Source of the DNA: Chloroflexota bacterium
Lineage (GTDB): Bacteria > Chloroflexota > Dehalococcoidia > GIF9 > UBA5629
Direction: 5' to 3'
DNA length: 64,000 nucleotides
Assembly: GCA_036821185.1 (NCBI GenBank)
Contig: DAISKD010000002.1
Span: 17,527-81,526 of the forward strand
The notes under the pieces were generated by a model. That model was not told the origin of the DNA. It was given only the letters and a program-made list of their open reading frames with translations, and made no database searches. Each line of letters begins with the position of its first letter. Position 1 is the stretch's first letter. A program made the position numbers and the translations under genes. Below are positions 14,423 through 61,348 of this stretch, one piece after another.

Positions 14423-14423
14423 C

Positions 14424-17400: not shown

Positions 17401-17492
17401 AACGGAGCTTCCAGGAGACCGAGCTCGGGCTTTCCGAAGAGCAGGCTAGGTACGATGCTAGGCGGTGCCTGCGGTGCGACCTGGAGAGTTAG
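14424..17492 (+). CDS. Fusion protein: NuoE-like 2Fe-2S domain, NuoF-like NADH/FMN/4Fe-4S module, 2x[4Fe-4S] ferredoxin, and a GltD/NfnB-like FAD-NAD(P)H oxidoreductase. It is SfrB-like.
   Basis: Motifs seen are CQGTGC...CHGFC, GAGAFVCGEETALI with ESCGKCVPCR (NuoF N3), a CxxCxxCxxxCP pair, a GltD N-terminal cluster (CGRICHHPCEGRC), GxGxxG twice (VIGAGPCG and VIGGGNVALD), and FAGGD. Confidence 0.8.
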   Translation: MGPRITVLVCQGTGCISSRSDAVYTAFQEQVTALGLANVKVDFTGCHGFCEQGPNVVIEPEGIFYTHVQVDDVPEIVSSHLRDGIAVERLFYRDPLSGKPIPHYSEINFYAKQQRVILNNCGHINPESIEDYINSGGFRALRKALLEMTPEQVIEEVKESGLRGRGGAGFPTWRKWEFCRSALGSQKYVICNADEGDPGAFMDRSILEADPYAVIEGLTIAGYAIGATQGYIYVRAEYPLAVSRVRHAVERCREKGYLGSNILGSGFNFTIEIKEGAGAFVCGEETALIASIESRRGMPRPRPPFPAQSGLDGKPTIINNVKTLASVPLIIANGAKWYASIGTEKSKGTAVFALTGKVANSGLVEVPMGTPLSTIIFDIGGGIPRGKRFKAVQTGGPSGGCIPAQFLDTPVDYENLARLGSIMGSGGMVVMDETTCMVEVARYFLSFTQMESCGKCVPCRLGTRQMLEILTRITQGKGRDSDIDTLLALARTVKECSLCGLGQTCPNPVLTTLTYFRDEYEAHIKEKKCPAAVCDALMISPCQHTCPVGINIPKYVAHIAAGEYFESIETVRERNPFPAICGRICHHPCEGRCRRGELDEPVAIRALKRFVADWYFERIDELPPPQPFPRTKKEKVAVIGAGPCGLSCAYFLAQMGYGVTVFEAAAVGGGMPAVAIPDFRLPREVIDKEIDYIVKRGVEIRYNTPLNASFTIEHLRSSGYDAVFIAAGAQKSQTIGIPGESEALSGFYYGLKFLRDVKLGRQLKVGRRVAVIGGGNVALDASRTALRLGAEEVNVYYRRSREEMPVTEVEFNEAVAEGIKIHFLVGPTRIVSRDSSVAGLQCVRMKLGEPDESARRKPIPIPGSEFFVEADTVIAAVGQAADLSFLPPDSALERSRWERLVVDSNTLSTNVPGVFAGGDFVFGPGMIIDAIASGRRGALAIDKYLRNDTTRVHMYDTKEPGTRPAEKPTTEEEETWQVAFRPRPPTLPIEMRKRSFQETELGLSEEQARYDARRCLRCDLES

Positions 17493-44617: not shown

Positions 44618-46165
44618 TCAAAACGCGCTCAGCACTGCATCGGGTACCTTTTCCCACGCCTGTCGCTCTTCATCATAAGGGGCATCCTCAAGCCGGCACT
44701 GTTTCCCCAGTATCATGGTCTGCCTGCGCTCACCGTAGGTCTCCCAGCTACCTAAGCTGGGACAGGTAGGGTCACCGCGCCGCGCAAAAGATGTCCAGGC
44801 GTCCTGTATTTTTTCGGACAAAGCCCAGGCCTCCTCGCTGGACCCGGTGAAGTTGTCGTCCAGAATACCGAAGACGAAGCCCAGCTCCAACGCATGGCAT
44901 GAGCCGAGGGCACCATCCTTCCACGGCGACACCCAGTCAAAGAGGTACATATAATTTCTTTTGTTGCGACTGCGGTGGGCTTCGGTGAGCCGGATTGCCG
45001 GTATACGGAAGATCCTGTCCGTCTGGATGGCGGTGAATAAATCGACCGGCGCAACCGACCAGCCGCGCCTGGCGCGCGCCTGGCGGTAAGCATCAACAAG
45101 CGCTACCGCATCTGCGCCCGGTATCAGCCGCTGGCAACGACGCAGTAGTTTAGCTTCGTCCATCTCTGCCAGCCTGGCATCCACAAGGGCAAACAGTTTC
45201 CACTCGTCCATGGTGGTGCCCACCATGATGACGACCTCGTCCGCCGAGCCATTCGTAATGGCACGGGGCGGCATATCGGGGACTACAGAGCCGTCGACGA
45301 CCGGTCTTAAAGGCAGGTCGACCAGCCCTGATCTGGGGTCACGCGCTCTGGCGCTCAGCTCCTTATGGGCATCTAGAAGCTGTTCCGTAGTCAGCGACCA
45401 CAGCTTCTCTGGTTCGCCGGGCTTTATGCCCAGGATGTCAAGAAACATCTCCGCCACCTTCACAGCGCGCTCCACGGAGCTGACATGGTGACCGGCGCCG
45501 CTCTGTAAAATAGCCTTGTGGAACAGACCTTTCGCTTCTGGCATTGCTAACAGCGTCCCCACGCTCATGCCACCGGCAGACTCGCCGAAAATGGTCACAT
45601 TACTGGGGTCGCCACCGAAGTTAGAGATGTTGTCCCGCACCCACTGCAAAGCGAGCATTTGGTCGAGCAGCCCTTCATTACCCGTGGCCGGGATTTTGCC
45701 TTTGGTCACTTCGTTCAAGTTAATAAAGCCGAAGACATTAAGCCGATAGTTAATGGTGACCACCACCACGTCCCCACGCGTCGCCAGGCGACGGCCGTTA
45801 TATACCAGCCAAGAACCAGCGCCGGTGGTGAAGCCACCACCATGAATCCAGACCATCACCGGGCGCTTAGCATCATCCAGACCAGGCGTCCAGACGTTAA
45901 GGTAAAGGCAGTCCTCATTCTGTGGCTGCTGCTCAGGTGGACTTAGTAGGGGGATCTCCATAGGCACCTGCGGGCAAGTTGCTCCGAACTCCTTAGCCGG
46001 TCGCACACCGCTCCACGGCTGTAGCGGCTCAGGTGGCAGCCAGCGCCTTTTGCCCACCGGCGGTGCCGCGAAGGGCACGCCCCGAAAAACGTACGTCCCC
46101 TTCCTGAGTATGCCATCTATTTTCCCGAAAGTGGTCTCCACGATTGCCCCTGTGGTCTCAGCCAT
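44618..46165 (-). CDS. Type B carboxylesterase (para-nitrobenzyl esterase family).
   Basis: The catalytic serine pentapeptide GESAG sits in FGESAGG, with an oxyanion-hole HGGG. Confidence 0.85.
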   Translation of the reverse strand: MAETTGAIVETTFGKIDGILRKGTYVFRGVPFAAPPVGKRRWLPPEPLQPWSGVRPAKEFGATCPQVPMEIPLLSPPEQQPQNEDCLYLNVWTPGLDDAKRPVMVWIHGGGFTTGAGSWLVYNGRRLATRGDVVVVTINYRLNVFGFINLNEVTKGKIPATGNEGLLDQMLALQWVRDNISNFGGDPSNVTIFGESAGGMSVGTLLAMPEAKGLFHKAILQSGAGHHVSSVERAVKVAEMFLDILGIKPGEPEKLWSLTTEQLLDAHKELSARARDPRSGLVDLPLRPVVDGSVVPDMPPRAITNGSADEVVIMVGTTMDEWKLFALVDARLAEMDEAKLLRRCQRLIPGADAVALVDAYRQARARRGWSVAPVDLFTAIQTDRIFRIPAIRLTEAHRSRNKRNYMYLFDWVSPWKDGALGSCHALELGFVFGILDDNFTGSSEEAWALSEKIQDAWTSFARRGDPTCPSLGSWETYGERRQTMILGKQCRLEDAPYDEERQAWEKVPDAVLSAF

Positions 46166-46345: not shown

Positions 46346-48088
46346 CTACTTGGCAAGCATCGACTGCTTCAGCTCTTGGTCAATCCAGATGTATCTGGTG
46401 TAATTCAAGACATTGTAATAGCCCAGCGAGGACTCGCCGCTAAAGTTCTTTACCCACGGCCACCAGAACCGATAGTAATATGGTCCTGGCATCTGGATGA
46501 CATATACCTGCTCCATGATATAGGGCAACACCTCCCGGTGTATTTTGTCCACCGCAGCCTCGTCGGGGAATGCCGCCAGCATATCCTCGCGCGCCTTGTT
46601 CAGCACCGGGTCGTTTACGTAGCTACCATTAAACATCCCGCCACCAGTATAGTTAATAGCCTTGAAATAGGTGCCTATGCCCGAGTTGCTGGCCTGCATC
46701 ATTTCATCATACGCCCTTCTCACATGAAGGGAAAGGTAGGTGGAGTAGTCCTTAGGCTCAATCGTCAGCTCCACCCCTATCTTTGACCAATAATCCTTGA
46801 TAAGCTGCAAGACATCGACGACCATGCGGGTATTATAACACGGCATCTTGACCTTGAAGCCGTTGGGGTAGCCAGCCTCAGCCAGGAGCTGCTTCGCCTT
46901 CTCCGGATTGTAGTTGTACAGCTCCTGCACCGACTTCGGCATCTGTTCTAGTGGCACGTAGGCACCGGAATATTCCTTCACATGTATGATAGGCCACTTG
47001 ATGGCAAGCCCGTCTCCGCCGAAGTACCGGTCAACTATCCCCTTGTAGTCAATCGCCATCGATAAAGCCTGCCGCACCCTCTTATCAGCAAAAGGCATGT
47101 CCTTCTTGTCCGTCCTCATATAAATACAATAGGTAGCATCTTCGGAAAACCGCGCATGTCTCAACTGCGGCATGCGCAGGAATTCCTGTGCTATCTCCCA
47201 CTCCACAGTCGCTATGTCAAGCTGACCGGTGCGGAAAGCGGCGTGGAAGGTAGACTCGTCAGGTATGACATGCAGCTTGACCCCGTCAAGATATGGCAAC
47301 TGATCACCCTTACCGGGACCGATCGGATTCTTCTCCCAATAGCTGGGGTTGCGCGTAAATGTGACTATGCTGCCGGGCATAAAATCGGTGAGCATGAACG
47401 GACCGGTGCCGATGCTGTTCTTCCAGTCATTCAAGTTGCCGAACTGTTCCACAGCATCTTTGGGGAAGATGCACATGTAGTCAGGTAGCAAGGTGATGAC
47501 ATCGCCGAAATACAGCGGGTCGCACTTTACCACCACGGTGTAAGGGTCAGGTGCAGATATGTCCATGGTCTCACATGCCTTGGGGTATGTCTGCCTCATG
47601 TAGGCTGTGGGTAGAGTGCACTGGCGCTTTAGGGAGAAGACGACGTCATCGGCGGTAAGCTCCCTGCCGTTGGTCGGCGGCTTGTTGTGCCACTTGACCC
47701 CCTTGCGCAGATGGAAGATTATGGTGTGTTTTCCCTGTATCTCCCATCTCTCAACCAGAGACCCGGCCTTGTGTTCCAGGCGGTTGAGCCCTCCTCCGAC
47801 AAACCAATCGCACTCTTTGGTGCCATGCCCACCGGCATGCCCCTTGGTCCAGTCCCCAGTCCACAGCTCGTCATTGGTAAATTTCAGGGTGGTGCAATAT
47901 GCGTGACCCCGGATTGCATCGTCAAAAGCGGGAGGGTCGGCAGCGATCCTTAAGTTAAGGGTGCCACCATAAACTGGCTTCGCCTTCTCCTCGCCTACCT
48001 CTTTGACGCCCCTGGCACAGCTGCTGACCATCAGCCCGGCAATCAGCACCAGCACCAAAATATACACTACCGTTGTCTTCTTTATCAT
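46346..48088 (-). CDS. ABC transporter substrate-binding lipoprotein, family 5 (peptide/opine/nickel type).
   Basis: Signal peptide with lipobox (LMVSSC), followed by an SBP_bac_5 fold. The protein is 580 aa. Confidence 0.85.
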   Translation of the reverse strand: MIKKTTVVYILVLVLIAGLMVSSCARGVKEVGEEKAKPVYGGTLNLRIAADPPAFDDAIRGHAYCTTLKFTNDELWTGDWTKGHAGGHGTKECDWFVGGGLNRLEHKAGSLVERWEIQGKHTIIFHLRKGVKWHNKPPTNGRELTADDVVFSLKRQCTLPTAYMRQTYPKACETMDISAPDPYTVVVKCDPLYFGDVITLLPDYMCIFPKDAVEQFGNLNDWKNSIGTGPFMLTDFMPGSIVTFTRNPSYWEKNPIGPGKGDQLPYLDGVKLHVIPDESTFHAAFRTGQLDIATVEWEIAQEFLRMPQLRHARFSEDATYCIYMRTDKKDMPFADKRVRQALSMAIDYKGIVDRYFGGDGLAIKWPIIHVKEYSGAYVPLEQMPKSVQELYNYNPEKAKQLLAEAGYPNGFKVKMPCYNTRMVVDVLQLIKDYWSKIGVELTIEPKDYSTYLSLHVRRAYDEMMQASNSGIGTYFKAINYTGGGMFNGSYVNDPVLNKAREDMLAAFPDEAAVDKIHREVLPYIMEQVYVIQMPGPYYYRFWWPWVKNFSGESSLGYYNVLNYTRYIWIDQELKQSMLAK

Positions 48089-48489: not shown

Positions 48490-50266
48490 CTATTTGCCCA
48501 GCATAGACTGCTTCAGCTCCTGGTCTATCCAGATATATTTGGCATAGCTAAAGGTGTTATAGTAGCCAATCGAGGCTTCGCCGCTGTAGTTCTTCACCCA
48601 GGGCCACCAGAACCGGTAATAGCGCTGTCCCGGCAGCGGGATGGTATAGCATTGCTCGAACAGGTACGGTAACATTTCGGCATGTATCTTGTCCACTCTG
48701 GCTTCATCAGGAAATGCTGCCCCCATTTCGTCCCTCGCCTTGTTAAGCACCGGGTCATCTATCAAGCTGAGGTTGAACATTCCGGTACCAGTATAGTTTG
48801 TACCCTTAAAATAAGCGCCGACGCCAGCACCTGTCCACAAGGCCATATCATCATAAGCTCGCCTGACAACTAGGGACAGTAACACGCCATAGTCCTTAGG
48901 TTCAAGTATTAACTCCACGCCTACCTTTGCCCATGAGTCCTTCACCATTTGCAGCAGGTCTGAATATAGGCGCTGATTGTAGAAGATTATCTTCGCCTTG
49001 AACCCATTGGGGTACCCGGCTTCAGCCAGAAGCTGCTTTGCCTTCTCCGGCTGGTACTTGAATACCTCCTGTGCTGACGGTGGCAATTTTTCGAAGGGCA
49101 CAAATGCATTGGCATACTCCCTCGTGTTCGGGACCGGCCAACCGTACAGCCTACCCTTGCCACCGAAATACTCGTTTAGTATTTTATTACGGTCAATAGC
49201 CATGGACAGTGCCTGCCGCACCCTCTTATCAGCAAAGGGAGAGTCCTTTTTATCCATCCTCATGCATATAGCCAGTCCGGTATCCCCCTCAAACTCGACA
49301 TGCTTCAGCTCCGGTCTGTTCAGGAACTCCAGTGCCGTCTCCCAATCGAGAGTGGCTATATCAAGCTGACCGGTGCGGAAAGCCGCAATGGCAGTGGACT
49401 CATCAGGAATGAACACCATTTTAACACCATCCAGATATGGCAACTGGTCTCCTTTTCCCGGTCCAATCGGGTTCCGCTGCCAATAATTGGGGTTACGCAC
49501 ATATGAGATAACGCTGCCAGGCACAAATTCGGTCAACGTAAATGGGCCAGTGCCGATATTGTTCTGCCATTCGTTCATGTTACCGAACTGCTCCACAGCA
49601 TCTTTGGGGAAGATGTGAGCATAATCAGGCAGCGTAGTGATGACGTCGGCGAAATATTCTGGCTTACATTTGATGACCACGGTATAGGGGTCCGGTGCTG
49701 ATATCTCGGTGGCCCCAGCCGCCTTAGGGTATGTCCTCTTGAAATAGGCTGTGGGCAGAGTCAACATACGGTTCAATAGAGTAGACAACATCCTCAGCCG
49801 TTACCTCCCGACCGTTGGTCGGCGGCTTGTTGTAGAACTTGACGCCCTTGCGCAGGTGGAAGATGATGGTATCCTTGCCCTGTATCTCCCAACTCTCAGC
49901 TAAACATCCGGCCTTGTGTTCCAAGCGGTTAAGGCCACTAATGAACCAATCGCACTCACCGGTGCCATAGCCACCGGCTTTCCCCTTGGTCCAGTCGCCT
50001 TCCCAGAGCTCATCGTTGGTCAGCTTTAAGGGGTAAGTGTTGTAATGGGGCTGGATGGCATCATCAAAATAGGGTGTGAGCTCGACCCTGACCGTGAGGG
50101 TGCCACCGTAAACAGGTTTTTCTTTCTCCACGGCCACCTCTTTGACACCCTTAGCACAGCTACTACCCACAAGGGTGACGATAGCAACTAAGATAAAAAG
50201 GCAGGCTAGCATCCGGTTTCTTGTCATGTGTGTTTCCTCCAATTCAGCATAATGTGGTCCACGCAC
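48490..50266 (-). pseudogene. Second family-5 SBP lipoprotein, paralogous to 46346..48088. It is split into two ORFs by a 1-nt frameshift near 49776-49780.
   Basis: The N-terminal ORF (50266..49724, signal with lipobox GSSC) and the C-terminal ORF (49791..48490) overlap by 68 nt. Removing one A in TCTATTGAAC restores VVYSLNRMLTLPTAY, colinear with the paralog sequence VVFSLKRQCTLPTAY. Confidence 0.7.
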
Positions 50267-50344: not shown

Positions 50345-51004
50345 TCAATTTTTGCTTACGCTTTGCGCCCGACTGACCGGCTTCTTGTTTGCCCGAATGC
50401 TGGCAAGGATGGAATCGGTCTGTTTCCTGATATACTCCTCCAGGGTATACCGCTTTTTCAGCAGCCACCTCCTATTTGCCCAGGCATTGGCAGCAACCAC
50501 AATATTGTGGGCCACCAAATATGTGTCCTCTATTTCAAACTCGCCAGCTTTCACCCCCTCGGTGAGCAGCTGGGTGAAATATTCAACCTTCTGTATCTCC
50601 CGGTCGAAAATAGTCTGCCTTAGCTCCTTTGAAGCCGTCCAAACGATGTGATTGTGTAAGTTGTATAGACCTTGAAGCTCATCCGCATTCTGAAAGTACA
50701 TCCTGATCGATTCCTTCAGAGCCTCAACAGGGGATAAGCCTTTCACCCGCTCCCTCATTTCCTTAAGCAAACGCTCATGATATGAGTTCCCATACTCCGT
50801 GCTCAGCCACAAAAGGTCATCTTTCGACCCGATGTAACGGTACAGCGCACCGATGGTCAGACCACAGGCCTCTGCTATCGCCCGCATGCCCGTCTCCCTG
50901 AACCCTTGGGCCATAAAAAGTTCCGTCGCCACCTTACATATCTGCTCCCTTCGTTTGGAAAGGAGTTCCTTATCGGTGATCGAATGCCGAATCTGTTTCA
51001 TCAT
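50345..51004 (-). CDS. TetR/AcrR family transcriptional regulator.
   Basis: An N-terminal HTH (REQICKVATELFMAQGFRETGMRAIAEACGLTIGALYRYI) with a C-terminal ligand-binding domain. Confidence 0.85.
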   Translation of the reverse strand: MMKQIRHSITDKELLSKRREQICKVATELFMAQGFRETGMRAIAEACGLTIGALYRYIGSKDDLLWLSTEYGNSYHERLLKEMRERVKGLSPVEALKESIRMYFQNADELQGLYNLHNHIVWTASKELRQTIFDREIQKVEYFTQLLTEGVKAGEFEIEDTYLVAHNIVVAANAWANRRWLLKKRYTLEEYIRKQTDSILASIRANKKPVSRAQSVSKN

Positions 51005-51063: not shown

Positions 51064-51093
51064 GGTTAACAATTGTTAGCTAACAATGGCTAA
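51064..51093. promoter_or_regulatory. Overlapping palindromes, a candidate TetR operator.
   Basis: GTTAACAATTGTTAGCTAACAATGGCTAAC contains the perfect palindromes TAACAATTGTTA (51066-51077) and GTTAGCTAAC (51074-51083), with GCTAAC repeated at 10-bp spacing. It lies 60-90 nt upstream of the tetR start. Confidence 0.45.
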
Positions 51094-51314: not shown

Positions 51315-52280
51315 TTATGACGAGCCCGCTTCAAGAGGCGTTTTTCTCTTTACCATGCCGGACCAGTGCGTAAAATTAAGCCCTTCTCTCCTTGCTATCT
51401 CCACCAGCGATTCCATAACGTCCGCCGTGAGCATGTCCACCCCTTCTAGAGACCAAGGGCAACCCAGCCGGCGGTACTTTGCCGAGCAAGTATTATTGAA
51501 AGCTAGCAAATCATAGCGTTCTGCCGTGGGGAGATTGTCTCTGATGAAACGGGCTATCCCCCTGATATTGTCTTCGCTATCGGTATACCCCGGTATCACC
51601 GGCGTCCGCACCCACATGGGTTTGCCCAGCCTAGCTATCTCGCGGGCGTTATTCAGCACCGTCTGGAGCGAAATCCCCGTGTATTCCAGATGTCTTGCCT
51701 CGTCTATTATCTTTATATCGTAGAGAACAAGATCAGCCATCCTGATTAGAGGCTGCAACCTCGTCCAGGTTACCCCTCCAGAGGTGTCCAGCACGACGTG
51801 TATCCCTTCCCGGGAGGCAGCCTGCATCAGGGCAAGCGAAAATTCAGGTTGCATCGCCGGCTCACCACCGGATAAAGTCACTCCCCCTCCTGACTTTTCA
51901 TAAAATATTCTGTCGCGCAGCACCTGCTCAAGCACTTCATTTACCGTGACGCGTCGCCCGATTACTTCCAGGGCTGCAGCCGGACATGCCCTGACACAGT
52001 CGCCACAACAATCGCAAATATCTCTAGCGATGAGCATACCGTCGGAGGTGAGCTGCAGAGCCGACTTAGCGCAAGCTTTTAAGCATTCCGTTGCTCCGAT
52101 ACATCGAACCTCGTACCATACGAGGTGCGGCTGCATCTTCATCCCCTCAGGGTTGTGACACCAGGGACATCGCAATGGGCATCCTTTGAGAAACACCGTG
52201 GTGCGGATCCCTGGACCATCCTCGGTGGAGTGGCGCTGAATATTGAAAATCATTCCGGTAAGATTGTTCGATTCAGTCAA
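51315..52280 (-). CDS. Glycyl-radical enzyme activating protein (radical SAM, PflA-like, with an extra ferredoxin-like domain).
   Basis: Contains the CPLRCPWCHN radical-SAM motif, two CxxCxxCxxxC clusters, and a SAM-binding GGEP. Confidence 0.85.
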   Translation of the reverse strand: MTESNNLTGMIFNIQRHSTEDGPGIRTTVFLKGCPLRCPWCHNPEGMKMQPHLVWYEVRCIGATECLKACAKSALQLTSDGMLIARDICDCCGDCVRACPAAALEVIGRRVTVNEVLEQVLRDRIFYEKSGGGVTLSGGEPAMQPEFSLALMQAASREGIHVVLDTSGGVTWTRLQPLIRMADLVLYDIKIIDEARHLEYTGISLQTVLNNAREIARLGKPMWVRTPVIPGYTDSEDNIRGIARFIRDNLPTAERYDLLAFNNTCSAKYRRLGCPWSLEGVDMLTADVMESLVEIARREGLNFTHWSGMVKRKTPLEAGSS

Positions 52281-52336
52281 CGAAATCCCTCCACCCTCTC
52301 TAGGCGCTCAGATTGGCTATCCGCTGATAACAGCAG

Positions 52337-54808
52337 TTATATTTCGCCAAACTCAGTTCGAGCTATTATGTCGTCCTGCAGCGGCTTCGAGAGGTCTATG
52401 AAACGGAAAGAGTAACCTGAAACCTTAACCACAAGGTCAGGGTAATTCTCGGGGTGCTTCTGAGCATCTTTCAAGGTCTCTACATCCACCGGATTGAACT
52501 GTATATGTCTCCCACCCAGTAGGAAGTAAGCCTCGATCATAGAAGTTAATTTGTCTAGACCTTCGTCCGTCTTTATAACACCGGGTGAGAGTCTCATATT
52601 GAACGTCGTACCGCTGCTCAAACAAGCCTTGCACGCTCTGGAAACCGAATGGAGTACCGCCGTGGCTCCGTTAGTTTCCGTACCATTGGTGGGAGATATA
52701 CCGTTGGACACCGGTGCCCTGGCTAACCGACCATCAGCTGAAGCTCCACACACCAGCCCCTCGGTCACGTGAGTCCCGGACGATATCAGCAACGGACGAT
52801 AGCATCCTCCTAACACCCTCGACCTATGGCTTCTGACCTCATGCTCTAAGACGCTGGTAACCCACTCGGCGAGTTCGTCAGCCCTGAGGTCATCATTCCC
52901 GTACTTTGGAGCCTTACGCAGCAGCAGTTGCCGGACGCTCTCAGCACCGGCAAAGTTGTTGCGCAGATGGTTTACCAGCTCCTCCATGGTGAGAAGCTTC
53001 TCCTCAAACACCGCCCAGCGGATGGCACTCAGCGAGTTCGTTACAGTGGCCAGCCCTTGCGCACCCAGTGTTACGTGGCTGTACCGTGCCCCTCCCTGAG
53101 CTATATCGTAGCCGCTTTCCAGACATCCCTCTATCGTTGATGACAGCAGTGGATTGGGGAAATATTTGGCGATCACCTCGTCTTTGATGTCCCCATGCCT
53201 GACCGCGGCACTCACCACGTAAGAAAGCTGTCCTAGAAAAGCCCCCTTTACATCCTCGAAAGTTTTGAAGGTGCTGGCAGGAGGAGTCGGCGCCCCCACA
53301 CGTTTCCCGTCCCGGAATCGGCATCCTTCGTTCAAAGCAAGCTCCAGCACCTGAGTCAAATGAATACCGGTGCCGGCGGTATAGCCATTGTTATTGCACG
53401 AACCGGTAGGTTCGGCACACCCCACGATGGCATAGTCCCGCGCATCCTCAAGCGAATAACCGTCCTTCAACAGGTCCCTGATTATCACCTCGTCGTTGAA
53501 AAATGCAATGCCAGCACCTATACGGAGCGTCTGGCAAGCTCTTTCCAGGAAAGCCCGCGGTGTTCTAGCAGAAATCCTTACGCTGAAGCTCTTGCGCAGA
53601 CCACCTCCAAGGGCATCGTGGGCATCGAGGAACAGGTAAGAGAGCTCGTTGGTCGCATCTTCGCCGTTTCGGTCAACCCCTCCGATGGTGACATTGTTCG
53701 GTCCGAAAACGAGGAAGTGCGATACCTTTATCAGGTACTCCTCCAGATACTCCAACGCCTGTTCTGGCGTTATCAGCCCCTTTTCAATATCCTGCTTATA
53801 ATACGGGTAAAGGAGCTGGTCGAGCCTGCCTACAGTGTGGACCCCGTCATCGCCATAGCTGATTGCCAAGACGACTTGTGTCATCCACACCGATTGCAGT
53901 GCCTCCAAAAAGCTCCGCGGTGGATTAGCCGGCACCCACCGACAGCGTTCGGCTATCTCCAACAACTCTTTTCTTCTCTGTCCCTCCACCTTCTGAGCCA
54001 TCTCTTCAGCCAAAGCCGCGTACCGATTGGAAAAATCGCATACCGCCCTGGCTGCCACTTGAACAGCCTCATAGAAATTCTTTCTGGTCTCGTAATCCTT
54101 GCTATCCTCCTTGAGCTCGCTTAGGGCTTTCGTTGCCCACTCATATATACCATTGAAGCCAATGTTCAGCACCCGTCTCAGCCCAACGATAATATGACCC
54201 TGCAGGTCCACGCTATGTGCCACCTCGGTAGCATCGGGGGCAACGCCCCTTTTTCTCCAAAACTCGGCTTTCAGGCTGCGGAGGTCCCTTCCCTCCCAAT
54301 AAGGGAGTATCTCCTCCTTCAACTCCCGATATACCTCCTCCGGCATATTGATAACCTCACGGTCGAACTCCGGACTATGTCCGCCCATACCCGACAACAG
54401 TTTCAGTCTCTCTTCAGAAAGTTTACCTTCGCGAATCAACAGCGCCTTTCGGATGGCGGCGCTTACCAGGCTTCTTTCGATCCCCACCACACTGGCTACC
54501 GGCTTGAAAGTCTTCGAGCCCACCAGCAGTTCATCCTCGTTTATCCTGATAGACATGTTACCAAGCGTCTCCCTCAAGGCATGTGCTGCACGGAGAGCTG
54601 GCGGCGCCTTCTCCATCTGCTTCCAGGTCCTGGTGTAGTAACGCATTCGCTCGATATCTACTTCGTATGGGCTGGCGAACAGACGCTGCTTCAACCGTTG
54701 TATCCTGTCTGAAAGTGGCCTCTGCTTAACTTGGGTAACTGCCAGGGTCATAACTGTTATCTCCTTTCCATAAATTTCAAATGGCCCTACCGCAACTATT
54801 GTACACAC
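52337..54808 (-). CDS. Glycyl radical enzyme, PFL-fold, eliminase-type Cys loop (paralog 1).
   Basis: The C-terminal glycine-radical motif is VKVSGYSFRFIDL (Gly codon about 52415-52417). The Cys loop is IVGCAEPTG, a single Cys plus Glu rather than the Cys-Cys of PFL. The protein is 823 aa. Confidence 0.85.
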   Translation of the reverse strand: MCTIVAVGPFEIYGKEITVMTLAVTQVKQRPLSDRIQRLKQRLFASPYEVDIERMRYYTRTWKQMEKAPPALRAAHALRETLGNMSIRINEDELLVGSKTFKPVASVVGIERSLVSAAIRKALLIREGKLSEERLKLLSGMGGHSPEFDREVINMPEEVYRELKEEILPYWEGRDLRSLKAEFWRKRGVAPDATEVAHSVDLQGHIIVGLRRVLNIGFNGIYEWATKALSELKEDSKDYETRKNFYEAVQVAARAVCDFSNRYAALAEEMAQKVEGQRRKELLEIAERCRWVPANPPRSFLEALQSVWMTQVVLAISYGDDGVHTVGRLDQLLYPYYKQDIEKGLITPEQALEYLEEYLIKVSHFLVFGPNNVTIGGVDRNGEDATNELSYLFLDAHDALGGGLRKSFSVRISARTPRAFLERACQTLRIGAGIAFFNDEVIIRDLLKDGYSLEDARDYAIVGCAEPTGSCNNNGYTAGTGIHLTQVLELALNEGCRFRDGKRVGAPTPPASTFKTFEDVKGAFLGQLSYVVSAAVRHGDIKDEVIAKYFPNPLLSSTIEGCLESGYDIAQGGARYSHVTLGAQGLATVTNSLSAIRWAVFEEKLLTMEELVNHLRNNFAGAESVRQLLLRKAPKYGNDDLRADELAEWVTSVLEHEVRSHRSRVLGGCYRPLLISSGTHVTEGLVCGASADGRLARAPVSNGISPTNGTETNGATAVLHSVSRACKACLSSGTTFNMRLSPGVIKTDEGLDKLTSMIEAYFLLGGRHIQFNPVDVETLKDAQKHPENYPDLVVKVSGYSFRFIDLSKPLQDDIIARTEFGEI

Positions 54809-55004
54809 TGCTTCTCGCTAACGCAAAAACGGGCTTTATGGGGAAACGCTCGCAAACCCAAGGGCGGCCTTTCAATACCAACCTCACAAGAGATTAACCT
54901 CATAAAAGACGCCGAGCAGACGCAGCTTCAAACGCGCTATCTCCTCCGAAACGGGCTTCTACTCGGCTGGGGCAGTTAAAAGGCTAGTGACTGTGCCCCT
55001 TTAA

Positions 55005-57515
55005 TTAGTTAAGTTGAAACTCGGTCCGGGCGATGATGTCGTCCTGGACACGCTTGGGCAGATCGATGAAACGGAAGGAGAAACCAGAGACCTTGACCAT
55101 CAGGTCGAGATAGTTCTCCGGGTGCTCCTGCGCATCCAGCAACATCTCTTTGCTTAGGGGGTTAAACTGCACCTGTCTGCCACCGAGAGCGAAATAGCCC
55201 TCGATCAAAGAGGCGAACTTGTTCAAGCCCTCTTCGGTCTTTATGCCCAGCGGGTTAACGATGGCATTAAGTATGGTACCGTCGCTCACCGGGACGGCAC
55301 AGACCTTTGCTGCCGAACACATAACAGCCGTCAACCCGTTGCGCTCCGTCCCATTCGAGGGGGTGATCCCGTTGGACAGCGGCGTCCCGGCCAGCCTGCC
55401 ATCAGGGGTAGCACCGATGGTCGCTCCCCAGGCAACATGCGTCGCCGAGGAAAGCATGTACGGTCTGTGGACACCTCCCATCCAGAACCTGTGCTTCCTC
55501 ACCTCCCTGTTATATACATCGGTAATCCACACCGCCAGCTCATCAACGGAAGGGTCATCATTGCCATACTTTGGAGCACGGAGCAAACGCTGCCTTAAGT
55601 CCTCTCTCCCCTGGAAATTGTTGCGCAGACACTCGGCAAGTTTTTCCATCGTGACCAGCTTCTGGTCGAAGACCGCCCACTTGATGGCTGCCAGTGAGTC
55701 GGCAGCTGTAGCCAGCGAGCAGTTGCCGATCGCCGAGTGGTTATAACGGGCACCACCTCGAGTAACGTCCTCGCCGGACTCCACACAGCCTTCGATCGTC
55801 GCCGAAAGCAATGGCAACGGATAATGTTCGGCAATCACCTGATCCTTTAAGTACCCAGCTTTCACACATCCTGCGACAGACCGTGAAAGCTGCTCTTCGA
55901 TCGCCTTCTTAAAATCTTCGAACGTGTTGAGGGAGGACACAGGGGCTGCAGGCGGTGCCACCTGCTTCCATTTCACCGGGTACCTTCTGCCCTCATGCAA
56001 CACCAACTCTAGGACAGCCGCCAGCAGGACACCGTTGGTGGCGGTGTAGCCGTTATTGTTCCCGGTACCAGTGGGCTCAGCACAGCCCACAATAGAGTAG
56101 TCCCTGGCATCTTCCAGCGAATAGCCATCCTCCAGAAGCCCCTTGATCACCACATCGTCATTGTAAAAAGCGACGCCGGCACAGTCCCGGTGGACTTCAC
56201 ATGCTTTAGTCAGGAACTCCCGCGGTGTCTTTCCTGGATAAATCCTTACCGCCAGCCCGGACCGCCCACAGCCCTTCAGTCTCCTGTGGGCTTCAAGGAA
56301 AAGATAGCTCACCTCATTTACTGCATCCTCGCCGTCCCTGTCGATTCCACCGATGGTCACATTATTGGGACCAAAATATACATTGGTGGCGAGCTTTACA
56401 ATGTACTCCATGATGGCCTCAAGGGCTTGTTCTCGGGTGAGCCTCCCAGCTTCAATATCACGCTTGTAGTATGGATAGAGGAACTGGTCCACCCTGCCCG
56501 GGCAGGTAATAGAGTTGCCACCGTAGCTGATCAACACCGCCACCTGGGTCAGCCAGACAGCCTGAACCGCTTCCATGAAGTTCCGTGGCGGGTTGGCTGG
56601 CACCCAGCGGCAACGCTCAGCTATTTCCAATAACTCTCCCCTCCTCTGTCCGCTAGCCTTTTGTGCCATCTCTTCAGCCAGCCGGGCATAGCGCTCGGCA
56701 AAATGGCACACCGCCCCGGCAACAATCTGCACCGCCTCCAGAAAGTCCTTCTTCCTTAGATAAGCCTTTTCCCCAAGCTTCCCCCTCTCGAAATCCGCCC
56801 GAAATGCAGCCAGCTTCTCTGCCGCCTGACGGGCAATGCCCTTGAAACCCATATCCAGAACCTTCTTAATCCCCACAATCACATGTCCCTGGGGCGGAAC
56901 ATCGCTGACAAACCACCCCCCCAGCGCTCTGGTACTGCCATCCTCAGCGATGATGCCGTTCTCCTTCCAGGCAGCCAGCTTGAGGACATGGACAGTCTTG
57001 TCCTTCCAGTAAGGCACTATCTCCTCTTTAAGCTCGCGGTACTCTTCCTCCGAAATGTTCGGCATTTCCTTCCAGAAACTCGGGCCCCTTGCCCCGAGGG
57101 CACCTCCGCGGACTTCTGCAGCCTCCGCCACCCATTCCTCCACCGTTTTCCCGGTGCCGTACAGAGATAACGCCAGGAAGATATGGGGTTGACCCACAGA
57201 AGCCTCAACATAAATGGGATCAGCCCAGTCTTTGCTCGACTTGGAGCCTACGATCAGCTCCTCATCCTCGATCCTGATGGGTATATTATGCAGCGTCTCT
57301 TCCAGCCCCTTGGCGGCACGAAAACACGGGGGCTGTCCTTCGGTCTGCTTGTATGCCCTGGTATAGTGCTTTGCCCTTTCGATGTCCAGCTTGAAAGTGG
57401 TGGCAAGTAAGCGCTCCCGCATCTTCCTGATGCGCTCCGGGACATATCCCGCCTGCGAAGCAACCCCGGCCTCCTGCCGGCTTACCGCGATTTTAGTAGT
57501 CTCCATGGCGTCCAC
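55005..57515 (-). CDS. Glycyl radical enzyme, PFL-fold, eliminase-type Cys loop (paralog 2).
   Basis: 836 aa with VKVSGFSFRFIDL (Gly codon about 55083-55085) and IVGCAEPTG. It is closely paralogous to the 823-aa protein. Confidence 0.85.
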   Translation of the reverse strand: MDAMETTKIAVSRQEAGVASQAGYVPERIRKMRERLLATTFKLDIERAKHYTRAYKQTEGQPPCFRAAKGLEETLHNIPIRIEDEELIVGSKSSKDWADPIYVEASVGQPHIFLALSLYGTGKTVEEWVAEAAEVRGGALGARGPSFWKEMPNISEEEYRELKEEIVPYWKDKTVHVLKLAAWKENGIIAEDGSTRALGGWFVSDVPPQGHVIVGIKKVLDMGFKGIARQAAEKLAAFRADFERGKLGEKAYLRKKDFLEAVQIVAGAVCHFAERYARLAEEMAQKASGQRRGELLEIAERCRWVPANPPRNFMEAVQAVWLTQVAVLISYGGNSITCPGRVDQFLYPYYKRDIEAGRLTREQALEAIMEYIVKLATNVYFGPNNVTIGGIDRDGEDAVNEVSYLFLEAHRRLKGCGRSGLAVRIYPGKTPREFLTKACEVHRDCAGVAFYNDDVVIKGLLEDGYSLEDARDYSIVGCAEPTGTGNNNGYTATNGVLLAAVLELVLHEGRRYPVKWKQVAPPAAPVSSLNTFEDFKKAIEEQLSRSVAGCVKAGYLKDQVIAEHYPLPLLSATIEGCVESGEDVTRGGARYNHSAIGNCSLATAADSLAAIKWAVFDQKLVTMEKLAECLRNNFQGREDLRQRLLRAPKYGNDDPSVDELAVWITDVYNREVRKHRFWMGGVHRPYMLSSATHVAWGATIGATPDGRLAGTPLSNGITPSNGTERNGLTAVMCSAAKVCAVPVSDGTILNAIVNPLGIKTEEGLNKFASLIEGYFALGGRQVQFNPLSKEMLLDAQEHPENYLDLMVKVSGFSFRFIDLPKRVQDDIIARTEFQLN

Positions 57516-57712: not shown

Positions 57713-58807
57713 ATGATTTCATTCAGTCCCACCGAAGAACAACAGATGATAGTGAATATGGTGAAGCAGTTCGCCACCGACGAGATGCGCAAAATCTATC
57801 GGGAGTGCGACGAGAGCGGCGAGGTCCCTCAGAGGCTCATCGAAACAGCATGGGGGCTGGGGCTTACCTCGAGTTGCATCCCCGAGGGGTATGGCGGCGC
57901 CGGTGGTGAGCGCTCGGTGCTCACCGGGGCACTCATCGCCGAAGAGCTAGCCTGGGGCGACCTGTCGATGGCGATGCACATCCTCTGCCCCTCCCTGTTC
58001 GTCCTGCCCATCCTGGAAATGGGTACCGAGGAGCAGAAGAAAAAATACCTCCCCATGTTCTGCGGTGCCAAATTCACCGCAGCCACTGCGGCTCTGATAG
58101 AGCCCAAGTTCAATTTCGACCCCAACGAGCTGTCTACCACGGCACGGAGAGACGGCAATAACTACATCCTCAACGGCGAAAAGTGCTATGTGCCACTGGC
58201 TGCCGAATCGGAGGCTATCCTGGTATATGCCGCTGAAGACGGGCAGACACAAGGGTTCATTGTAGAAAAGGGAACGCCGGGACTGGAGATAAAGGAACGG
58301 GAAAAGAACATGGGTATCAAAGCCCTGGCGACTTACGAGCTGTCGCTAAAGGACTGCCGCGTGCCCAGGGAGAACCGCCTCGGCGGAGAAAAGGCGTGCG
58401 ACTTTAACCGCTTGCTCAACTGTTCCCGTGTAGCCTTAGCAACGATGGCAGTTGGGGTGGCGAAGGCATCCTATGAATATGCCCGGGACTACGCCAAGAC
58501 GCGCGTTGCCTTTGGTGAGCCCATAGCCTCAAGACAGGCCATCGCCTTTATGCTCGCTGAGACAGCTATCGAAATAGATGCTACCAGGCTGATGGTATGG
58601 GAAGCCGCCTGGATGCTGGACAAGAAGATGGAAGCGACCAGAGAGTCCTCACTGGTCAAGCTGTACGCTGATGATATGGTGATGACCGCCACCGATAGAG
58701 GAGTGCAGATCCTGGGCGGGCACGGCTACATCCGCGAACACCCGGTGGAGCTCTGGTTCCGCAACGGTCGAGGTTTCGCCACCTTCGATGGCATGGCTAT
58801 GGTATAA
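57713..58807 (+). CDS. Acyl-CoA dehydrogenase family protein lacking the C-terminal YEGT catalytic-Glu motif; a likely non-catalytic partner subunit.
   Basis: An ACAD fold of 364 aa. The C-terminus reads ...HGYIREHPVELWFRNGRGFATFDG with no YEG(T/S) and no Glu at the base position. An AAGGAG RBS is present. Confidence 0.7.
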   Translation: MISFSPTEEQQMIVNMVKQFATDEMRKIYRECDESGEVPQRLIETAWGLGLTSSCIPEGYGGAGGERSVLTGALIAEELAWGDLSMAMHILCPSLFVLPILEMGTEEQKKKYLPMFCGAKFTAATAALIEPKFNFDPNELSTTARRDGNNYILNGEKCYVPLAAESEAILVYAAEDGQTQGFIVEKGTPGLEIKEREKNMGIKALATYELSLKDCRVPRENRLGGEKACDFNRLLNCSRVALATMAVGVAKASYEYARDYAKTRVAFGEPIASRQAIAFMLAETAIEIDATRLMVWEAAWMLDKKMEATRESSLVKLYADDMVMTATDRGVQILGGHGYIREHPVELWFRNGRGFATFDGMAMV

Positions 58808-58827
58808 CATTAAGGAGGTATTGACCG

Positions 58828-60021
58828 ATGATAGACTTCGAACTTTCAGCCGAGGATAAAGCAACCATAGAGGCAGCGCACAAATATGCTGAAGAGCTCT
58901 TTCGTCCCCTCAGCCGCTACTACGATGAACACGAGCATGAAGACCCTAAGGAACTCATCGAAAAGTGGGTGGGCTTAAGGTCGCAAGGCAGTATCTTCGG
59001 TCTCGGTGTAGCTGCAGCTCTGAGGGTAGAGGAGTTCTGCTGGGGCGATGCCGGGCTGATGCTGGCGATGCCCGGTCCGGGGCTGGGCGGTGCTGCTGTG
59101 TTCGCCTCCGGCACCAGGGAACAGATAGAGAGGTTCCTCAAGCGGTACGGCGAGGACAAGCCCTGCTGGGGTGCCATGGCAATGACCGAACCCCACTGCG
59201 GTTCAGACACCGCAGCCATCAACGCCACCGCCGTCCGCGACGGCAATGAATGGGTAATTAACGGCGAAAAGATCTTCGTCACCGCCGGCAAACGGGCGAT
59301 GGAGGACTCCAACGGGCTGACCGTCGTCTGGGCTACGGTGGACAAGACCGCTGGCAGGGCTGGAATGAAACCGTTCGTCGTCGAAGCTGGTACCCCGGGT
59401 GTAAAGGTGGAGAAAAAGGAGAAGAAGCTGGGCATCAGGGCCAGCGATACCGTCACCCTAGTCTTCGACAACTGCCGCATCCCCTTCGACAACATCCTCG
59501 GTAGCCCTGAGGTGAGGCAAGTCGACCGCACGGACACCGCTGGCTTCAAGAAGGCGATGGCAACCTTCGATGCCACCCGCCCCATCATCGCCGCCATGGC
59601 CATCGGCATCGCCAGGGCAGCGCTCGACTTCGTTAAGGAAACGCTGGAGAAGGAAGGTATCAAGGTCCGTTATGGACTACACCGCCAGAAACTCACCGCC
59701 CTGGAACGGGACGTTATGGAAATGGAGTCCCAATACAAGGCAGCCAAGATGTTGATGCTACGGGCGGTATGGATGATGAGCCAGCTCAAACCCAATAACC
59801 TTGAGTCCTCAATGGCCAAGGTAAAGGCTGGACTCGCCGCCACCAAAATCACCCAGAAGGCTGTGGAAATACTGGGACCGCTGGGCTACTCCAGGAAATA
59901 CTTGGTGGAAAAGTGGATGCGCGATGCCAAGATAAACGACATCTTCGAAGGCACCGGTCAGATAAATATGCTGGTGGTAGCACGCCGCATCCTTGACTTT
60001 ACCAGAGAACAGCTTAAATAG
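58828..60021 (+). CDS. Acyl-CoA dehydrogenase.
   Basis: An ACAD fold of 397 aa with the catalytic-base motif DIFEGTGQIN (YEGT-like). It starts 20 nt after the previous ACAD gene. Confidence 0.8.
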   Translation: MIDFELSAEDKATIEAAHKYAEELFRPLSRYYDEHEHEDPKELIEKWVGLRSQGSIFGLGVAAALRVEEFCWGDAGLMLAMPGPGLGGAAVFASGTREQIERFLKRYGEDKPCWGAMAMTEPHCGSDTAAINATAVRDGNEWVINGEKIFVTAGKRAMEDSNGLTVVWATVDKTAGRAGMKPFVVEAGTPGVKVEKKEKKLGIRASDTVTLVFDNCRIPFDNILGSPEVRQVDRTDTAGFKKAMATFDATRPIIAAMAIGIARAALDFVKETLEKEGIKVRYGLHRQKLTALERDVMEMESQYKAAKMLMLRAVWMMSQLKPNNLESSMAKVKAGLAATKITQKAVEILGPLGYSRKYLVEKWMRDAKINDIFEGTGQINMLVVARRILDFTREQLK

Positions 60022-60062: not shown

Positions 60063-60391
60063 ATGAAAGTGGTTTACCATTCCCGATTCCTGGAGGTCTA
60101 CGCCTCCAACCCCGCCGCCAGCCCCGGCAGGCTGGAACCCATCCTAGAGGAACTACGCCACCTCCAGTTCGTTGAACCCGAACCGGCTACCGAAGAAGAC
60201 CTGCTCAGAGTACATACCCGGCAGCATGTAGAGTCCATTAAAAGGGAGACGACTATAACCCCATCGGAAGGCTTATCAAAAGAGCAGCAGAGAGGAACTG
60301 CCAGGGCAGAAGGTTCGCCGTCCTCGAAGGTGGCTATAACCACAGCGTGCTGGACAAAAACGTCAGAGCTTTTGTGGAGGGACTGGACTGA
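60063..60391 (+). pseudogene. Remnant of a histone deacetylase/acetoin-utilization (HDAC) family gene. The N-terminal ~60 aa are joined out of frame to the C-terminal ~45 aa, and the catalytic core is deleted.
   Basis: The N-terminal frame reads MKVVYHSRFLEVYASNPAASPGRLEPI...EEDLLRVHTRQHVESIK, the HDAC N-terminal signature. The +1 frame from about 60242 reads ...RRFAVLEGGYNHSVLDKNVRAFVEGLD*, the HDAC C-terminal EGGY motif. There are no metal-binding D/H core residues in between. Confidence 0.5.
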
Positions 60392-60400
60392 GCTCTGTCT

Positions 60401-61348
60401 CTACGGTGGGCACTTGGCGCAGACGGAGCGGAACAAGGTGGTGCTGAGATAGCGGTCCCCACGGTCCGGTAGTATGACAACGATGGTGCCGGAGCGCATC
60501 CTCTTCGCCAGCCGCAGTGCTCCCACCACGGCAGCACCGCTTGACATACCGACAAACAGCCCTTCTTTGACCGCTAACAGCCTAGTCGTCTCAAAAGCCT
60601 CCTCGTCTTCAACCACCACCTTGTCGTCGCAGAGCTCCGGACGATAAATCTTGGGTACGATGGACTCACTCAGGTTTTTCAAACCCTGGATGGCGTGACC
60701 TACAGTGGGCTCAACAGCCACAATTTTGACCTCTGGTTTTTTCTCCTTAAAGTATTTCGATACCCCCATCAGCGTGCCCGTCGTCCCGATGCCGGCCACG
60801 AACACATCCACCTCTCCATTCGTCTGAGAGAAGATCTCCGGACCAGTAGTCTCATAGTGAGCAAGCACGTTGTACTCATTATCGAACTGGTTGGGCATAT
60901 AGTATTTTTCCGGCTCCTCCATCACAAGCTGGTGCGCCCTTCTGATGGCACCGTCGGTGCCCTCGTCACCCGGCGTCAGCACCACCTCAGCCCCGAAAGC
61001 AGTAAGAGTGCGCTGTCTCTCCACGCTGACGCACTCCGGCATAAAAAGCTTTACCCGGTAGCCTCTGGCAGCGCCCATCATCGCCAGCGCAATGCCCATA
61101 TTCCCTGATGTCGGCTCCACTATCGTTTTCTGCGGGGTAAGCTCACCGCTCGCTTCAGCTTTCATTATCATGTAATATGCCGGGCGGTCTTTGACCGAGC
61201 CACCAGGATTAGCGCCTTCGAACTTTCCCAAAATGCGCACCTTCGGATTACCGTTGAGGTTGGTCAGCTCCACCAGCGGCGTATTGCCGATGGTACTAAA
61301 CAAGCTAAACTTTCCAGTTGCAGTTTTCAGACTTGCCCTGTTTCTCAA
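60401..61348 (-). CDS. cysK: Cysteine synthase (PLP-dependent O-acetylserine sulfhydrylase).
   Basis: The PLP-Lys motif region NPGGSVKDRPA, glycine-rich loops, and a length of 315 aa. Confidence 0.85.
   Translation of the reverse strand: MRNRASLKTATGKFSLFSTIGNTPLVELTNLNGNPKVRILGKFEGANPGGSVKDRPAYYMIMKAEASGELTPQKTIVEPTSGNMGIALAMMGAARGYRVKLFMPECVSVERQRTLTAFGAEVVLTPGDEGTDGAIRRAHQLVMEEPEKYYMPNQFDNEYNVLAHYETTGPEIFSQTNGEVDVFVAGIGTTGTLMGVSKYFKEKKPEVKIVAVEPTVGHAIQGLKNLSESIVPKIYRPELCDDKVVVEDEEAFETTRLLAVKEGLFVGMSSGAAVVGALRLAKRMRSGTIVVILPDRGDRYLSTTLFRSVCAKCPP

Follow-up and report, generated by a model that had tools for sequence, protein, structure and literature searches.

The 64,000-nucleotide stretch analysed here (contig DAISKD010000002.1 of assembly GCA_036821185.1, positions 17,527 to 81,526 of the forward strand; hereafter the window) comes from a Chloroflexota bacterium of the class Dehalococcoidia. 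It carries two genes for glycyl radical enzymes (GREs), GRE2 and GRE1, and one for a GRE activating enzyme (activase; Table 1). As the original prediction from the DNA letters had it, all three lie in one orientation, on the minus strand; their full open reading frames (ORFs) cover positions 55005-57515 (GRE2), 52337-54808 (GRE1) and 51315-52280 (activase), and the activase gene starts 57 nt downstream of GRE1. The three-gene feature is real and intact. Both GREs matched PF02901 and PF01228 (Pfam, E 1e-158 to 1e-166) and kept the radical Gly, a single catalytic Cys and the Cys-x-Glu pattern. The Cys-loop core GCAEPTG and the glycine-radical motif quoted in the prediction were present in both translations, the latter as VKVSGFSFRFIDL in GRE2 and VKVSGYSFRFIDL in GRE1. 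The two proteins were 54% identical over 811 aligned columns. Within the last 74 residues, which form the glycyl radical domain, 53 were identical (72%, counted on the pairwise alignment), and the Gly loops KVSG[Y/F]SF differed solely in the aromatic residue after Gly.

Table 1. Features of the window discussed in the text, in window coordinates (aa, amino acids).
Feature	Position	Strand	Remarks
Type-B carboxylesterase (Est50/PnbA-like)	44618-46165	minus	own promoter-like site
Family-5 (Dpp/Opp-type) solute-binding protein	46346-48088	minus	intact, 580 aa
Family-5 (Dpp/Opp-type) solute-binding protein	48490-50266	minus	frameshift near 49740-49776
TetR-family regulator	50345-51004	minus	downstream of the GREs
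Perfect 16-bp palindrome ATTGTTAGCTAACAAT	51072-51087	.	upstream of the TetR gene
GRE activating enzyme (radical SAM)	51315-52280	minus	CPLRCPWC (CX3CX2C) and two ferredoxin-like Cys clusters
GRE1	52337-54751	minus	804 aa from ATG 54751, AGGAG ribosome-binding site; subclade 'WIN_2'; Cys loop GCAEPTGSCNNNGY; Gly motif VKVSGYSFRFIDLSKP
GRE1 residues 344-352 (SHFLVFGPN)	53696-53722	minus	short loop replacing a ~24-residue 'cap helix' segment
Spacer between GRE2 and GRE1	54752-55004	minus	253 nt; decayed GRE1 5' end, hairpin, -10-like box
GRE2	55005-57506	minus	833 aa from ATG 57506, 836 aa from GTG 57515; subclade 'WIN_1'; Cys loop GCAEPTGTGNNNGY; Gly motif VKVSGFSFRFIDLPKR
Acyl-CoA dehydrogenase paralog pair	57713-60021	plus	364 and 397 aa; divergent from the GREs

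The lengths originally given, 836 and 823 residues, hold for the ORFs, but the likely starts are the ATG codons behind ribosome-binding sites, which shorten GRE2 to 833 and GRE1 to 804 residues. For GRE1, this ATG was preferred because of its ribosome-binding site and because 804 residues is the length of all close homologs. The activase scored 335 bits against the NCBIfam model of glycyl-radical activating enzymes, TIGR02494 (cut-off 174); this score, the CX3CX2C motif and the position of the gene next to a GRE identify it as a GRE activating enzyme. Its start is probably either a TTG (321 aa) or Met10, and the public 273-aa gene call would remove the CX3CX2C motif. Neither room nor an ORF was found, between or beside the three genes, for small subunits of the X-succinate-synthase/BSS or HPAD type, in line with the prediction.

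With a PFL-like barrel, a C-terminal glycyl radical domain and the catalytic Cys, both proteins belong to the GRE superfamily. Their Gly region, KVSG[YF]SFRFIDLxKxxQDDIIAR, follows the superfamily fingerprint RVxG[FWY]x6-8[FL]x4Qx2[IV]x2R of a 2026 review, except that Lys replaces the Arg. No curated NCBIfam equivalog or subfamily cut-off was reached by GRE1 or GRE2, and the equivalog models scored at about half of their cut-offs or less: 521-538 bits for HypD (NF043068, cut-off 1100), 485-498 for HpsG (NF048011, 1000), 452-458 for CutC (TIGR04394, 1050), 433-456 for HpfG (NF048009, 1000), 408-433 for YbiW/PflD (NF007437, 1109), 386-392 for IAD (1100) and 308-335 for HPAD (1150). For IslA/IseG/HpsG/HpfG, the criteria were the equivalog cut-offs of 1000 bits and the Arg/Gln/Arg triad that anchors the sulfonate. 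The PFL model TIGR01255 gave 122-164 bits (cut-off 994), and both proteins have Gly-Cys in place of the Cys-Cys of PFL. The broad PFL2-3 subfamily model TIGR01774, taken as the test for glycerol dehydratase (GD) and propanediol dehydratase (PD), gave 580 bits against a cut-off of 678.

The best sequence matches in the PDB were CutC, GD, HypD, PD and Archaeoglobus fulgidus PFL2 (E 1e-114 to 1e-139), with BLASTP identities of 35-37% to GD and HypD; BSS, MASS and HPAD were much weaker matches (E 1e-67 to 1e-71). For the first four, E was 1e-118 to 1e-139. The unlabelled match 9RCO is a Raoultella PD. The AlphaFold2 model of GRE1 (66-sequence alignment, pLDDT 92.4, pTM 0.92) superposed on GD, HypD, PD and CutC with TM-scores of ~0.90 at 30-33% identity, and on HPAD, BSS and MASS at 24-26% identity. 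The Cys loop had been read as the pattern of eliminases and dehydratases rather than that of PFL. Both GREs do carry a single Cys, the Cys-x-Glu pattern and no small subunits, which at the motif level places them in the eliminase/isomerase mechanistic class, closest to the 1,2-eliminases and isomerases. The pattern is, however, not exclusive to eliminases, because the isomerases HplG, YbiW and PflD keep it. In HPAD, too, the second residue after the Cys is a Glu.

At E < 1e-50, a protein search yielded 917 relatives; the closest ones (85-89% identity) and a broad band at 50-59% were all of metagenomic origin. The scan of one genome per species gave 76 loci, all in metagenome-assembled genomes (MAGs). 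The bacterial loci belonged to Dehalococcoidia and other Chloroflexota, Syntrophomonadaceae and other Bacillota, Acidobacteriota, Actinomycetota, and Thermodesulfobacteriota and other Deltaproteobacteria, including Smithella. Among the archaeal loci, many were from Asgard archaea (Promethearchaeota, Thor-, Hel-, Hod-, Odin-, Frey- and Jordarchaeia), joined by Nezha- and Nitrososphaerales. The window genes were 85-89% identical to, and syntenic with, genes of Dehalococcoidia MAGs.

In neighbour-joining trees, 102 clade sequences formed one group on a long branch in 98 of 100 bootstraps; the references were GD, HypD, Escherichia coli PflD, YbiW and PflB, and A. fulgidus PFL2. Within the clade, identity to GRE1 or GRE2 was at least 45-47%. 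By these trees, GRE1 and GRE2 belong to a large monophyletic clade that contains no characterised member. Neither the family models nor the PDB comparison nor the phylogeny with these references placed a paralog inside a characterised GRE clade, the outcome that the original prediction had named as its refutation. In the literature, we found no characterised member either, only genome-based speculation (Ass/Bss, or 'carbohydrates or peptides').

The Gly, Cys, Glu and His were kept in all 102 clade members examined. The His lies in the signature QGH and aligns with GD His164 and HypD His160, and the Cys-x-Glu pattern takes the form GC[VAT]E in all members. Further signatures were NN[VI]T[IL]GG across the clade, SNG[IM]SPxNGTE at the place where other GREs have [DE]G[IV]SPxxGxD, and [KR]V[ST]G, in which Lys replaces the Arg of the fingerprint. 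The clade also has a longer N-terminal insert.

Moreover, the clade shares a deletion of ~15 residues, located between helix 329-343 and strand 353-357 of GRE1 and at the same alignment columns in GRE2. The deleted segment is present in the aligned GD, HypD, PflD, YbiW, PFL2 and PflB, and the AlphaFold2 secondary structure of GRE1 showed only a nine-residue loop at this site. An insert at the site was observed in four clade members only, all from Actinomycetota (loci L034, L058, L083 and L084). According to the 2026 review, the cap helix is retained by all GREs, lines the substrate channel and closes one end of the barrel; cap-helix residues are Ser334 in HypD, Phe333 in GD and Phe389 in CutC (numbering of the HypD paper). 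Alignment and predicted fold together suggest that the cap helix was apparently lost in this clade; if confirmed, this loss would run counter to what has been stated as an invariant of the superfamily's structure.

Among the 72 loci with a full-length clade GRE, 22 had two to four copies, and exactly one activase was present at 20 of these 22. Tandem paralogs with one activase are therefore normal for the clade, and the earlier view that such an arrangement is uncommon was not borne out within it. One of the 22 multi-copy loci, from a Promethearchaeota genome (L045:12641-17621), consists of a single clade member beside two very divergent GREs, again with a single activase. The divergent proteins have the Cys loops GCNEP and GCYEP and the Gly motifs RVAGY and KVAGY, and fall outside the clade, near HypD, in the tree. 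What we propose as new here, on sequence grounds, is a clade of GREs that has a structural signature of its own and tends to form multi-paralog arrays.

The two window paralogs fell in different parts of the clade. GRE2 grouped with the partner copies of Dehalococcoidia and one Deltaproteobacteria sequence (100% bootstrap); its next neighbours, in a tree without bootstraps, were first a Bacillota sequence, followed by sequences of Nezha, Jord and Nitrososphaerales. The group of GRE1 (97-100% bootstrap) comprised the other Dehalococcoidia copies together with Syntrophomonadaceae and Chloroflexota genes that are present in single copy. Because the two copies sit in separate deep subclades, both supported by 97-100% bootstrap, the tree indicates that the duplication is old and not a recent tandem event. 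The pairs of Thermodesulfobacteriota and Asgard archaea come from other subclade pairs. A lone GRE with an activase was found at L014-L018 and L023 (GRE1 type) and at L038 (GRE2 type), and the close relatives displayed three gene orders, namely GRE2-GRE1-activase, GRE1-activase-GRE2 and GRE2-activase-GRE1.

GRE1 and GRE2 also differ in the β-strand and loop segments that line GRE pockets. The differences include SYGDDGVHTVGR vs SYGGNSITCPGR, YRPLLISSGTH vs HRPYMLSSATH, and TAGTG vs TATNG. Cross-activation by one activase has been documented for GREs whose Gly loops differ only as RVSG[Y/F]. Since the C-terminal domains are 72% identical and the Gly loops differ in Tyr/Phe only, as in that precedent, it is plausible by analogy that one activase serves both GREs.

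The spacer between GRE2 and GRE1 retains a decayed copy of the GRE1 5' end, with 80% identity to the start of the orthologous gene in L010. In this copy, the start codon is lost (ATG to ACT) and a CAG has become TAG, an in-frame stop. The spacer further holds a TACAAT -10-like box and a weak hairpin that resembles a terminator. In the close relatives L003, L009 and L010, the gap between GRE2 and GRE1 is just 22-28 nt. The short gap of the relatives and the decayed copy therefore indicate that GRE1 of the window has gained a different 5' region, which brings its own ribosome-binding site and -10-like box. The element GTGTACAAT, common to the upstream regions of both GREs, is most simply read as a -10-like box. 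No riboswitch or other known RNA was found in the window between positions 44000 and 61000.

The neighbours named in the original prediction, i.e. a TetR regulator, two solute-binding proteins, a type-B carboxylesterase and a divergent acyl-CoA dehydrogenase pair, were all recovered (Table 1), and their combination indeed resembles no characterised GRE pathway. One solute-binding protein gene is frameshifted; its two frames together match the 578-aa ortholog in L010 at 79-84% identity, and it is either a pseudogene or an assembly error. Beyond the carboxylesterase lies the ribosomal operon rpsL-rpsG-fusA. Acyl-CoA dehydrogenase pairs similar to that of the window adjoin clade GREs in L009, L010, L033 and L071. 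The palindrome ATTGTTAGCTAACAAT is unique in the window and sits among TTGTTA(G/A)C repeats that overlap, close to and downstream of a promoter-like site (TTGACA-17-TATTCT); it is probably the TetR operator, serving autoregulation.

Across the 72 loci, an activase was found at 52, a TetR-type regulator at 25 (counting a MerR-TetR fusion in Deltaproteobacteria) and some part of an ABC importer at 34 (Dpp/Opp-type at 18, Liv-type at 9). Acyl-CoA ligases or dehydrogenases occurred at 13 loci and a ferredoxin-domain protein of 369 aa at 14. Carboxylesterases were present at seven loci of about four independent lineages, with Acidobacteriota, Thermodesulfobacteriota and Thorarchaeota represented besides the window, and esterase-like genes overall at 12. 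Hydrolases of the Amidohydro_1, Amidohydro_2 and Abhydrolase_1 types and a family-III CoA-transferase were each confined to single lineages. Thus, the regulator, ABC importer, esterase and acyl-CoA enzymes recur across phyla, and none is universal. No microcompartment shell gene recurred beside the clade GREs. This gene context suggests that the substrate would be an imported polar solute; in some lineages, an ester or amide hydrolase may set it free and there may be a link to acyl-CoA metabolism.

Several further genes were observed. An unannotated protein of ~690 aa, 'c18' (L050:7352-9427; homologs in L028/L036, L041, L047, L057, L061, L064 and L068), adjoins clade GREs in Asgard archaea and Chloroflexia, at eight of the 72 loci; its sequence contains a GGSGGA motif, and in Thorarchaeota it occurs together with a carboxylesterase. 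The searches gave only PKD-repeat matches in Pfam for c18, with no catalytic domain, NCBIfam match or significant PDB match. The 369-aa protein (L041:277-1383 and homologs), found in bacteria and Asgard archaea, is Cys-rich in the middle and carries a 2x[4Fe-4S] ferredoxin domain at the C-terminus; it could supply the activase with electrons or act as a redox sensor. In the window, a 129-aa ORF at 60063-60452 (plus strand) has a match to a histone-deacetylase-type domain that scores below the Pfam cut-off and covers only the domain's N-terminal third. This ORF, possibly a gene remnant, overlaps a pyridoxal-phosphate-dependent (PALP) gene at 60401-61348 (minus strand) at the 3' end of the latter. 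Positions 11278-17492 (plus strand) encode an 889-aa molybdopterin oxidoreductase whose N-terminal Fe-S domains are NuoG-like, then a 160-aa ORF, and then a protein of 1026 aa in which a NuoF-like FMN/Fe-S module is fused to a pyridine-nucleotide-disulfide oxidoreductase. This set looks like a formate-dehydrogenase-type, NAD(P)-linked electron-transfer complex.

The reading that we favour, with a probability of roughly 0.55, is that GRE1 and GRE2 are separate, catalytically competent eliminase- or isomerase-like enzymes that would be activated by one activase and act on two related imported substrates. We infer the reaction type, the shared activation and the use of two substrates rather than one by analogy with characterised GREs. 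Two related substrates appear probable because the paralogs derive from different old subclades and differ at pocket-lining segments. The original prediction had offered two related substrates or a heteromeric enzyme; the former remains as an inferred part of our reading, and the latter is not favoured, given the lone-GRE loci and the variable gene order.

By analogy, a four-step mechanism is the best supported, about as probable as the reading itself. The single radical-SAM activase would install the glycyl radical on both GREs, and a thiyl radical on the single Cys would next abstract a hydrogen from the carbinol (or amine-bearing) carbon of the substrate. The Glu of Cys-Ala-Glu would deprotonate or orient the substrate hydroxyl, and the conserved His would assist the departure of the adjacent O-linked (or N-linked) group. 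The vicinal O- or N-linked group would be eliminated, or a ring opened, and the hydrogen atom would be returned in the last step. In the eliminases GD, PD, HpfG, HypD, HpyG, HpzG, CutC, IslA/IseG and HpsG, as well as in the isomerases HplG, YbiW and PflD, the Glu of Cys-x-Glu is hydrogen-bonded to the substrate hydroxyl. GD His164 is the proposed acid for the leaving hydroxyl, and HypD His160 is essential. The substrates may be small polar compounds, for instance two isomers or homologues, that Dpp/Opp- or Liv-type ABC importers bring into the cell; esters may be their source in some lineages, and acyl-CoA metabolism their next station.

Several points weigh against this reading. The reaction type is transferred to the whole clade by motif analogy, and the substrate-binding residues of HypD, GD and CutC beyond the His, Cys and Glu are mostly absent, with a Ser at the position of HypD Thr645 being similar. 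Beside the clade GREs, no aldehyde or alcohol dehydrogenase, aldolase or reductase recurs that would consume an eliminase product. No permease or ATPase gene lies near the solute-binding proteins of the window, one of which is frameshifted, and the palindrome ATTGTTAGCTAACAAT was not found upstream of either GRE, even with three mismatches allowed. We must also note that the 22-28 nt gap between the GRE genes in the closest relatives would equally suit subunits of one enzyme.

The paralogs might instead be isozymes for one substrate, kept for dosage or differential regulation. The identical Cys-loop core, the near-identical Gly loops, the shared activase and the seemingly separate promoters of the two window genes are compatible with this. 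We nevertheless regard it as doubtful, as the proteins are only 54% identical, their separate deep subclades are conserved across phyla, and their pocket-lining segments differ. To a bolder proposal we give the same low credence, namely that the clade represents a GRE reaction class new to science, acting on substrates bulkier than those of any known eliminase. It is suggested by the loss of the cap helix, the longer N-terminal insert, and the proximity of the arrays to Dpp/Opp importers and esterases. Small peptides, glycosides or ethers, esters and CoA-linked acids could be candidate substrates; if this were true, Asgard archaea and Dehalococcoidia could be degrading organic matter anaerobically by a major route that has been overlooked.

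Another possibility is that the paralogs are α and α' subunits of one heteromeric GRE, both required, with one of them perhaps mainly regulatory or structural. Pairs drawn from two subclades do recur beside one activase in Dehalococcoidia, Thermodesulfobacteriota and Asgard archaea, and the close spacing of the genes in the closest relatives points the same way. However, every catalytic residue is kept in both copies, each subclade also occurs as a single GRE with an activase, gene order varies, and arrays of three to four copies exist. In the window, moreover, the genes are split by the 253-nt spacer with its terminator- and promoter-like elements. Homodimers are the form described for GREs, and heterodimers made of catalytic paralogs are not known. 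The loci with a single GRE and the variable gene order favour two independent enzymes over an obligate heteromer, which we therefore consider unlikely.

It is improbable that GRE1 and GRE2 are divergent representatives of an activity already described, such as the dehydration of glycerol or 1,2-diols, with the alcohol freed by the neighbouring esterase as substrate. GD ranks first or second among the structural and sequence matches, its catalytic His and Glu are conserved, and esterases recur in several lineages besides the one next to the window GREs. Against the residue criteria for GD and PD (His164, Glu435, Asp447, Ser282, and the cap-helix Phe333 with Tyr339/Phe344), however, Asp447 aligns to Ala, other residues take the places of His281/Ser282, the Phe333 segment is missing, and Tyr339, which follows closely after it, aligns to Phe. 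The PFL2-3 cut-off was missed, partner alcohol or aldehyde dehydrogenase and microcompartment genes are absent, and small diols would not need Dpp/Opp- or Liv-type importers.

Fumarate addition, i.e. hydrocarbon activation of the alkyl- or benzylsuccinate-synthase type, is very improbable: acyl-CoA ligases and dehydrogenases do recur nearby, but the β, γ and δ small-subunit genes of BSS and MASS are missing, BSS and MASS are the most distant PFL-like matches (1e-67 to 1e-71, 26%, vs 1e-120 to 1e-139 for eliminases), the Cys-x-Glu and His form an eliminase/isomerase signature, and ABC importers with solute-binding proteins suggest polar solutes rather than hydrocarbons. The idea has a precedent in a paper on Asgard archaea, where single-Cys GREs of Hermod- and Thorarchaeota were labelled alkyl/benzylsuccinate synthases on the basis of 29-33% identity to AssA/BssA. 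In public records, two clade members of a Syntrophomonadaceae MAG (P0077 and P0110) are named 'choline trimethylamine-lyase'. Motifs, distances and gene context argue against both labels, which for the clade described here look wrong or unsupported; the published Asgard proteins may themselves lie outside the clade.

GREs are oxygen-sensitive enzymes of chemically difficult anaerobic reactions, and each newly assigned GRE clade has brought a new pathway with it, as seen for choline to trimethylamine, hydroxyproline, isethionate and anhydro-sugars. As stated in the 2026 review, entire GRE clades still await validation and no archaeal PFL-like GRE has a known function. The present clade occurs widely among uncultured lineages of sediments and digesters, most Asgard groups among them, and is probably mis-annotated in some public records; Asgard relatives may have been read as hydrocarbon-activating Ass/Bss. 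The two GREs, their one activase and the adjacent oxygen-stable solute-binding protein are concrete test objects, and the ligand of the latter should reveal the substrate class. The function of the Asgard and Dehalococcoidia GREs thereby becomes experimentally approachable.

In comparison with known systems, GD (PDB 1R8W/1R9D) and the PDs (5I2G, 9RCO) share with the window GREs the fold (TM 0.90), the single Cys, Cys-x-Glu and the His at the GD His164 position, and their activase is of the same type, with two extra Fe-S cluster motifs. They differ in sequence (31-37% identity), in the residues listed above, in Tyr640, which is not conserved, and in the Arg of the Gly motif, replaced by Lys; the window also lacks their microcompartment or aldehyde/alcohol dehydrogenase context. 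HypD (6VXC/6VXE), considered with HpyG/HpzG (8ID1, 8IOF), is among the best NCBIfam equivalog and PDB matches. Its His160, Cys434 and Glu436 have counterparts and a Ser aligns to its Thr645, whereas Asp278, Asp339, Ser334, Phe340 and Tyr450 have no equivalents. The conserved Arg of 'YRP' (GRE1 Arg652) was considered as a carboxylate anchor and dropped, because HypD has the same Tyr-Arg with no reported substrate contact.

CutC (5FAU, 5A0U, 9F3W) was the top phmmer match in the PDB (1e-130, 1e-139) and shares Cys-x-Glu and the fold. The Asp of the CutC 'GD', however, aligns to the His of the clade QGH, and the window has no cut gene cluster or microcompartment. We take this Asp to be Asp216, which binds the trimethylammonium group. 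The position that is presumably CutC Tyr506 aligns to Gly, and the Thr at Cys+13 is similar to what we assume to be CutC Thr502. YbiW/PflD, which open the ring of anhydro-sugar phosphates, and HplG resemble the window GREs in Cys-x-Glu, the His and C-O/C-N cleavage without small subunits. YbiW/PflD nevertheless lie outside the clade in the tree, and in E. coli frw phosphotransferase-system (PTS) genes and fsaA are adjacent, whereas the window has no PTS or aldolase gene. A. fulgidus PFL2 (2F3O), of disputed function, also falls outside the clade, with an RVAG motif and the cap-helix segment and without the clade signatures NNNGY and NGTE, yet it matches the window GREs at E 1e-114 to 1e-120 and 32% identity and has both Cys-x-Glu and the His.

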